IMG/VR virus record: IMGVR_UViG_3300037510_000569 | Location: 1-62,731 of that record | Reading direction: 5' to 3' (one strand) | From: a virus | Lineage: Duplodnaviria; Heunggongvirae; Uroviricota; Caudoviricetes | Length of the DNA stretch: 62,731 bases | Part shown: piece after piece, positions 40,506-60,745 of the stretch | Numbering within the stretch: position 1 is the stretch's first letter | Layout of the letters: every line of letters starts with the position of its first letter | The notes under the pieces: model-generated | The model's database searches: none | The model's input: only the letters and a program-made list of their open reading frames with translations | Told to the model about the DNA's origin: nothing | Translations under genes and position numbers: made by a program

Positions 40506-40510
40506 TGAAG

Positions 40511-40619
40511 TGCGCCCGGCGGGACTCGAACCCGCGACCTCCGCCTTGAAAGGGCGGCGCTGCTGGACCCCGCATCTCCCGAAGGCGCGTAAGCCTCGAA
40601 CCAACTGAGCTACGGACGC
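40511..40619 (-). tRNA. tRNA-Glu(TTC) with a 35-nt insertion in the D arm
   Basis: GCGTCCG/CGGGCGC, CCGCC CT TTC AA GGCGG, GCGGG TTCGAGT CCCGC all intact; extra bases 40561-40595 inside the D-stem 3' strand. Confidence 0.85.
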
Positions 40620-40785
40620 AAGATGGAAACGGCGGGCTTGACCCGCTCAGCGTTCGAGCGGACCTGGGGCGCTCTCGGAGCGCGGGCGCGTGCCGTAGCG
40701 AAGGGTCACGCGAGCGAGTGTAGCTCGATGCCACGACGGGACACGCAGCGGGTACCCTTCCGCTGGTCCCGAACAAGGAGGCGCA

Positions 40786-60515: not shown

Positions 60516-60587
60516 GGCGCTGTGGTCTAGCGGCTAGGACACCGCCCTCTCGAGGCGGGGGTCAGGGTTCGATTCCCTGCAGCGCTA
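60516..60587 (+). tRNA. tRNA-Glu(CTC)
   Basis: CCGCC CT CTC GA GGCGG, TTCGATT; -10 TAAACT 7 nt upstream. Confidence 0.9.
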
Positions 60588-60595
60588 CTGCACAA

Positions 60596-60677: not shown

Positions 60678-60745
60678 GCGGGCCTAGCTTAGATGGCAAA
60701 GCGCTGGCGCTGCCGGAGATTCGGGCTCGGCTCCCGTGGCCCGCA
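60678..60745 (+). ncRNA. tRNA-like RNA lacking an anticodon loop
   Basis: Perfect acceptor GCGGGCC/GGCCCGC, D stem GCTT/AAGC, stem CTGGC/GCCGG with a 3-nt loop, T-loop CTCGGCT. Confidence 0.65.

Follow-up and report, generated by a model that had tools for sequence, protein, structure and literature searches.

The canonical bacterial tRNA-Glu(UUC), as modelled in Rfam RF00005, reads GAA codons with a CUUUCAA-type anticodon loop. The phage tRNA analysed here has the same loop, the same GAA decoding, the same acceptor, anticodon and T arms and the same tertiary-contact bases, and differs from the canonical form by an extra helix in the D loop, for which we call it five-armed. Class II tRNAs (Leu, Ser, bacterial Tyr and Sec) likewise possess a fifth helix that the ribosome tolerates, and the five-armed genes are misread as class II by ARAGORN. 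However, the helix of class II tRNAs stands between the anticodon and T arms, whereas that of the five-armed family is located in the D loop, in the 20a/b region. The long variable arm of tRNA-Ser is an identity element.

A short structured segment in the region of the D arm is also a property of the non-canonical tRNA introns of archaea, nucleomorphs and red algae. Those introns have a bulge-helix-bulge (BHB) motif, in which two 3-nt bulges with the splice sites stand on either side of a 4-bp helix, are cut by EndA and are joined by RtcB, whereas the phage segment lies in a bacterial setting and has no BHB, with neither EndA nor RtcB detected. Similarly, group I introns interrupt bacterial and phage tRNA genes, but these are ribozymes of more than 200 nt that sit in the anticodon loop of tRNA genes, as against 35 nt in the D loop and no Rfam match for the phage segment.

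Two described systems concern the D loop itself. The base U20B of tRNA-Glu (PMC2811023) occupies the same D-loop pocket in the same amino-acid family, but it is one base, as opposed to a helix of 18–30 nt. The V-Spinach tRNA fusions (PMC5397188) likewise consist of a helix added to a translating tRNA. In that work only the variable-loop fusions were stable; an aptamer placed in the D loop of an E. coli tRNA, between positions 16 and 18, failed to give stable expression, and this fusion was undetectable. The failure of the engineered D-loop fusion makes a natural D-loop helix noteworthy, although the natural arm lies on the other side of G18-G19. In a search of the full-text literature, which included a review of non-canonical natural tRNAs, we found no published D-loop hairpin or arm in a tRNA, no account of tRNA-Glu from Conexibacter or Solirubrobacterales, and no description of a natural elongator tRNA with an added helix other than the class II variable arm.

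The window, that is the whole stretch of 62,731 nt that was analysed, corresponds to the first 62.7 kb of a phage record of 134,735 bp (IMGVR_UViG_3300037510_000569, labelled G000), which has direct terminal repeats, was judged complete and has a G+C content of about 66%. ARAGORN reports 26 tRNA genes in the whole record. At a probability of roughly 60%, the gene at 40619..40511 (minus strand) is a working GAA-decoding member of a five-armed tRNA-Glu(UUC) lineage that belongs to a subset of the order Solirubrobacterales, in the class Thermoleophilia of the Actinomycetota, and to several uncultured phages, and its arm has been lengthened in this phage.

The window gene and its orthologue in a related phage

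The gene is 109 nt long. On the minus strand of the window, RF00005 matched it over its full length (model positions 1–71) with 58.5 bits, against a gathering score of 29, and cmscan of 40511-40619 left a 37-nt block of the D loop unaligned. The covariance model of the five-armed family, R1, gave it 66.3 bits, the top score among the tRNAs of this phage, leaving the arm as a 39-nt gap. The assignment made in an earlier note, a tRNA-Glu(UUC) with extra bases in the D arm, here about 35 nt, is therefore upheld.

All parts of the tRNA can be placed on the minus strand. The 5' strand of the acceptor stem (tRNA positions 1–7, 40613..40619) pairs with 40512-40518 over 7 bp, including one G-U pair (cmscan), and the discriminator A73 is at 40511. 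The segment 40596..40610 contains GCUC (40607-40610), which is the 5' strand of the D stem, and then the D loop on its 5' side, with A14, G18-G19 and a 5-nt spacer, UUCGA, ahead of the arm. The extra arm itself (40566..40595, about 30 nt), modelled by hand, is an irregular hairpin of about 11 pairs, broken by an A bulge and an AGA bulge and closed by a C(UUCG)G cap, whose UUCG tetraloop occupies 40583..40580. Next, at 40559..40565, come the last bases of the D loop (C, A21) and the 3' strand of the D stem, G(C)AGC, in which cmscan sees one non-standard pair, either a bulged C or else a C13-C22 mismatch. The anticodon arm (40541..40557) has the loop CUUUCAA with the anticodon UUC at 40550..40548, and the T arm (40519..40535) reads GCGGG-UUCGAGU-CCCGC. 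As read from the sequence, the tertiary-contact bases U8, A14, G18-G19, A21, U33, G53-U54-U55-C56 and A58, as well as A73, are all in place. No CCA is encoded at the 3' end, where the next bases are CUU.

This gene is the only one with a UUC anticodon in the phage, and the same is true of its orthologue in the related phage G001; each phage has in addition a normal tRNA-Glu(CUC). In the window the latter, also mentioned in the earlier note, is a real gene located at 60516..60588 (plus strand; ARAGORN and sequence), with a canonical Glu-type body and a 3-bp D stem. The five-armed gene is on the strand opposite to that of its neighbours. A scan for promoter and terminator consensus sequences around it gave nothing, including no sigma-70 consensus; the segment immediately upstream (40620..40740, minus strand), which contains small GC hairpins, is probably a promoter or leader.

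Other tRNA-like calls were encountered in the same record. Directly after tRNA-Glu(CUC) and tRNA-Asp, the window contains a 68-nt tRNA-like element (60678-60745, plus strand) whose acceptor, D and T arms are intact and whose anticodon loop has just 3 nt. It scored 38.1 bits with the Rfam tRNA model in close-up and was missed by ARAGORN and by the whole-window run. Two tRNA-Ser genes called by ARAGORN in locus L016 (G000 66671-66750 and 67049-67132) are only 80 and 84 nt long, and went unreported by the Rfam tRNA model at its gathering score.

At the five-armed gene, the only model reported by ARAGORN is a tRNA-Glu of 77 nt (40510-40586), which, if real, would make the upstream 33 nt a leftover fragment. 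This call was rejected and is scarcely credible: its acceptor stem contains two G-U pairs and a C-C mismatch, U8-A9 is replaced by GG, and its D arm is poor. Moreover, the 109-nt model is the one preferred by both Rfam and R1, G001 matches the 5' 15 nt at every position, and ARAGORN mislabels the bacterial copies of the family as well.

A megablast search of phage records turned up no cultured close relative of the window phage, whose terminase shares only 26% identity with those of Bacillus SPO1-like phages. The comparison was made with G001, a 130-kb IMG/VR record whose terminase is 82% identical to that of the window phage, and with which only about 17 kb can be aligned by blastn, at 78.5% identity. 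At the site of the window insert, the G001 orthologue carries 20 extra nt. The tRNA core is identical at 62 of 66 positions (94%; 15/15 in the 5' 15 nt and 47/51 in the 3' 51 nt), as compared with 45% for the D loop and arm, 70% for the upstream 120 nt and 45% downstream. In addition, the two copies differ by a compensatory change at the anticodon-stem pair 27:43, which is C-G in that of the window and U-A in that of G001. A core so conserved between diverged flanks, together with the compensatory pair, indicates purifying selection on the tRNA core and argues against a dead pseudogene. The earlier note had tied that possibility to an RNA neither spliced nor charged, with an insert both unique and unconserved. 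The segment is no isolated case: its site is common to a whole family, described below. The arm of G001 is a 6-bp stem with a GCAA loop, and its first three pairs (G-C, G-U, C-G) are also those of the window arm.

The upstream 120 nt (window 40620-40740, minus strand; L006, around 1500-1620) share their 70% identity though little else of the two phages can be aligned. Within them, some 15 nt ahead of the 5' end of the tRNA, lies a small GC hairpin whose stem differs by paired changes (GCGGG/CCCGC versus GCGCGG/CCGCGC). Relative to the Arg/Val tRNA cluster, the orientation of the tRNA-Glu unit is inverted in one phage with respect to the other.

Five-armed tRNAs in Solirubrobacterales and phages

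Gapped pattern scans of IMG/VR revealed the same five-armed design in seven further viral contigs of 35–62 kb, whereas a pattern scan of metagenome contigs gave 0 matches. The shared body is GCGYNCG-UA-GCUC-AGUGGUCAA, followed by the hairpin and AAA-GAGC, after which the anticodon arm, the variable loop and the T arm are ordinary. The anticodon is UUC in five of the viral copies (L015, L020–L023), CCU in two identical ones (L029/L030) and UGC in one (L031). The pair G3:U70 is the mark of alanine tRNAs, and the UGC copy is without it. The five-arm body was also seen with other anticodons in L047, L083 and L149 (ACC, UGU with a 35-nt arm, and CGG). The sequences suggest that anticodons have been switched on the five-arm scaffold, mostly in phage or phage-like contigs.

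Several unusual tRNAs were noted during these scans. Just upstream of its tRNA-Glu, one contig (IMGVR_UViG_3300046812_000338, L022:1003-1125, plus strand) has a second five-armed tRNA, 123 nt in total, in which a block of 28 nt replaces the 7-nt anticodon loop. A tRNA with anticodon CAU from a low-GC phage (IMGVR_UViG_3300046710_000506, L024:5251-5322, plus strand) carries, between its anticodon stem and position 32, a hairpin of some 20 nt, an insertion of a different kind from the D-loop arm. A tRNA-Val(UAC) at L032:3276-3340 (plus strand) has a 16-nt variable region, and in a long tRNA-like sequence at L027:271-360 (minus strand) the D and T arms are separated by about 50 nt.

Among bacteria, represented by contigs of one genome per species, the pattern matched at least 120 genomes, nearly all of them Solirubrobacterales, Solirubrobacteraceae or Thermoleophilia MAGs. 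The bacterial matches listed comprise 50 distinct sequences, almost all of them a tRNA-Glu(UUC) of 96 nt. In an even sample of the GTDB order Solirubrobacterales, 62 of 401 genomes had an exact-pattern copy, or about 15% of the sampled species, so that the trait is confined to a subset of the order. The pattern search was used in place of a genome search with R1, in which only 27 candidates were scored per genome and which gave an undercount (4/151).

Alignment of 22 distinct 96-nt members defines the arm as a hairpin of 7 bp, separated by 5 nt from G18-G19 on its 5' side and by 3 nt from the 3' strand of the D stem, and mostly capped by UNCG-type or similar tetraloops. In these 22 members, five of the seven pairs of the helix vary on both strands, not one is invariant, and pairing holds in 98% of the cells. 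For the five-helix structure as a whole, pairing is 99.4%, versus 88% in shuffles, and 0 of 500 shuffles reached 99.4%. When the partners were slid by 1–3 columns, pairing was at most 51%.

The window gene has the body of this family: a GCGYCCG acceptor, the GCUC D stem, the CUUUCAA loop, an AGGUC variable loop, the GCGGG T stem and A73 (alignment A2). Its helix is also placed as in the family, 5 nt after G18-G19 and 2–3 nt before the 3' strand of the D stem. The spacer that follows GG reads UCAAC in the family, UUCGA in the window and UUAGA in G001, all of 5 nt, and the 3' flank of the arm reads AAA, CA(G) and CA, respectively. In view of these matching spacers and flanks, and of the shared base pairs, the window arm is, on sequence comparison, homologous in position to the family arm and enlarged at its tip. 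It does not form the compact 7-bp stem with a tetraloop that is typical of the family, and resembles it only in its UUCG cap and 3-bp base.

Five chromosome-level genomes, picked from the pattern matches, were inspected as hosts. In all five, the five-armed gene is the sole tRNA gene with a UUC anticodon and has no neighbouring tRNA genes. All five also have a tRNA-Glu(CUC) of canonical body, whose D stem has 3 bp and whose variable loop has 4 nt, whereas the five-armed body has the 4-bp GCUC D stem and a 5-nt variable loop. Among the wrong names that ARAGORN gives to the host copies are tRNA-???(ggag) and Pro(ggg), and it makes the same error in the phages, because it mistakes the extra arm for the anticodon arm and the real anticodon arm for a long variable arm. 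A single GluRS-type enzyme was found in the three host genomes tested (3/3), and GatB in 5/5. One GluRS-type enzyme together with GatB implies an indirect pathway to Gln, in which discrimination is needed.

The codon GAA is used 18.3 times per 1000 codons in the phage (22% of Glu codons), versus 9.7 (14%) in the host loci, and this higher use gives the phage an ordinary reason to encode a GAA decoder of its own. Judged solely by tRNA architecture, the window phage probably infects a Solirubrobacterales host of the five-armed type.

The same collection of genes bears on whether these RNAs decode at all. They could instead be tRNA-shaped decoys for a host nuclease that targets tRNAs, or partners of a phage Ro60/Y-RNA system. 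Such a role would fit the five-arm bodies with other anticodons in phage contigs, including the UGC copy that lacks the alanine pair, and the existence of phage Ro60 and tRNA-like Y-RNA modules whose T arm matches that of tRNA-Glu(UUC). It is nevertheless very unlikely, as the five-armed gene is the sole tRNA able to read GAA in the hosts, the CUUUCAA loop is conserved in all UUC copies retrieved by scans that left the loop unspecified, and the 7-nt anticodon loop and 5-bp stem are standard.

The Ro60 module of the window phage lies outside the window. It consists of a Ro60/Rsr orthologue of 603 aa with TROVE and Ro60 vWA domains (G000 87385-87942 and 87894-89705; locus L017:5385-7705). Just upstream are two matches to YrlA (Y RNA-like), with 40.8 and 36.9 bits, below the gathering score of 69. 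They lie among three weak tRNA-like matches of R1, with a T arm identical to that of the five-armed tRNA-Glu.

Folding of the window copy and the nature of the insert

Folded according to a family-like five-arm model drawn by hand, the whole window tRNA has an energy of −37.9 kcal/mol. A proximal D-hairpin model, with the arm between positions 24 and 25, was discarded: at −31.7 kcal/mol it is about 6 kcal/mol worse, it loses A21 and it is at odds with the family. Without constraints, the minimum-energy fold reaches −49.4 kcal/mol, which is 11.5 kcal/mol below the five-arm cloverleaf; in this fold the insert pairs with the anticodon arm, on the 3' side of the latter.

The hairpin proposed in the earlier note, a C(UUCG)G cap with a 3-nt bulge, can indeed be drawn, the bulge being AGA, but the stability of the arm is not special: z is +0.55 relative to shuffled sequences, versus −2.5 to −4.7 for the other family arms. 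Likewise, the proposed pairing of CCAGC with the GUUGG of the D loop is present in the constrained minimum-energy fold, but it is thermodynamically unremarkable and is not conserved in G001. It would also tie up G18-G19.

The unremarkable stability of the arm, the gap left by R1 and the alternative fold mean that the window copy is possibly impaired, and it may be partly degenerate. One could go further and regard it as a decaying or non-functional descendant of the five-armed family, in which expansion of the loop disrupted the arm, the D stem was damaged, and the RNA misfolds and does not decode; the mismatch or bulge in the D stem, and an arm that R1 cannot align, would agree with this. We consider such decay unlikely. 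While most of the two phage genomes no longer align, and the flanks of the gene are at 45–70% identity, the core is still 94% identical to that of G001. The compensatory change in the anticodon stem, the intact tertiary-contact bases, and the status of the gene as sole UUC tRNA of a phage in which GAA makes up 22% of the Glu codons all speak against it. As for the alternative fold, nearest-neighbour folding often mispredicts tRNAs.

Two possible origins of the insert were considered and dismissed. A partial duplication of the tRNA's own anticodon-to-T region gave a local alignment score of 24, which is not significant since 7.5% of shuffles reach it. A mobile repeated hairpin element was rejected, the 35-mer being absent elsewhere in the phage and in IMG/VR.

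The earlier note had remarked that removing 35 nt (40561..40595, minus strand; tRNA positions 25–59) restores a canonical tRNA, and this is correct: the resulting 74 nt are called tRNA-Glu(UUC) by ARAGORN and form a perfect cloverleaf in RNAfold (−34.7 kcal/mol). The excision point is uncertain by one base (GA|G...CA|G). One of the two readings offered there was a non-canonical intron, that is a true intervening sequence, which some unknown bacterial or phage endonuclease and ligase would remove to yield the 74-nt tRNA. The exact restoration of the GAGC strand of the D stem by the loss of precisely 35 nt agrees with this reading, as does a GAG triplet at both ends of the 20-nt segment of G001, and the conserved hairpin could be a recognition structure.

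Several results render an intron decidedly unlikely. By hand, no BHB motif could be drawn for either junction pair: the 4-nt strands GUUC/CCAG and UUCG/CAGC are unpaired, and there is no exon-exon helix. Profile searches, whose positive controls matched, found EndA (PF01974) and RtcB (PF01139) in none of the five chromosome-level hosts and in neither of the two phages, and the RNA ligase PF09414 was not found in the window phage. A group I intron was rejected on account of the 35-nt length, the location in the D loop and the absence of an Intron_gpI match in Rfam at E <= 1. The intron mode of ARAGORN, which the earlier note had recommended, added solely a spurious "intron" call of 1.2 kb elsewhere in the genome.

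Furthermore, in most members of the family the 3' strand of the D stem is present once, distal to the hairpin, which leaves nothing to splice in these members. The phage copy L020 is instructive in this respect: its D-stem 3' strand, G(U)AGC, has a bulge equivalent to that of the window, and there are no upstream bases able to restore the D stem. The restored stem is therefore no general clue to an intron, and the perfect D stem obtained by excision in the window is probably a coincidence, due to a GAGG at the 5' base of the arm. Finally, strict covariation of a helix and UNCG or GNRA caps are typical of structural RNA that is retained. From these sequence features we infer that the arm is kept in the mature tRNA and is not an intron. 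This favours the second reading of the earlier note, a functional extended D arm, as the segment sits at the site of a covarying hairpin in a tRNA-Glu(UUC) family and the core is conserved between two divergent phages. The uses that the note imagined for such an arm, evasion of nucleases or a regulated tRNA, are speculative.

A proposed function for the D-loop arm

If the window gene is a working five-armed tRNA, its life could be pictured as follows. Bases at 20a/20b normally flip out into solvent. It is at this 20a/20b pocket, in the D loop's 3' half and five bases past G18-G19, that a small helix would grow out. The phage would carry its own copy, in which the arm was lengthened from about 18 to about 30 nt and became irregular. 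The gene, preceded by the 120 nt that are conserved in G001, would be transcribed as its own unit. The transcript would be trimmed by RNase P and by processing at the 3' end, and CCA would then be added, a step proposed because none is encoded. The arm would stay in the mature tRNA and project from the outer corner of the L shape, leaving the G18-psi55 and G19-C56 contacts unbroken. The single host GluRS would charge the tRNA through its anticodon, and the tRNA would supply GAA decoding to a phage that is GAA-rich, with about twice the use of host genes.

As to the arm itself, it may be a steric flag at the place where GatCAB rejects tRNA-Glu. In tRNA-Glu, the extra base U20B flips out of the corner formed by the D and T loops, and it is by this base that GatCAB rejects Glu-tRNA-Glu (PMC2811023). 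By analogy, a role of the five-armed helix in discrimination by GatCAB is plausible. The pair G1-C72 is already an antideterminant for GatCAB. In a more general form, which we offer as a tentative possibility, the arm would be a functional handle and not a passive expansion: a steric signal by which one non-discriminating GluRS and GatCAB could tell a GAA decoder with a non-Glu-like body from tRNA-Gln.

Should the arm be such a handle, it might also be an identity element, or a shield against nucleases that target tRNAs. Phages would then copy the handle so that host enzymes accept the phage GAA decoder. The arm of the window, with its some 30 nt otherwise unconstrained, would imply that only the base and the position of the arm matter. 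D-loop tagging of tRNAs would then also have a precedent in nature.

Taken as a family, the five-armed tRNAs are an exception to the cloverleaf: the sole GAA decoder of many soil bacteria carries a helix in its D loop, and phages have copied it. The window copy shows that the length of the arm can range from about 17 to 30 nt. The family is also a hazard for annotation, since ARAGORN labels five-armed genes as Arg, Pro, Ala or undetermined. More broadly, the 20a/b pocket may serve as a site for the insertion of helices into tRNAs, and the five-armed design is a possible marker with which uncultured phages may be linked to Solirubrobacterales hosts.
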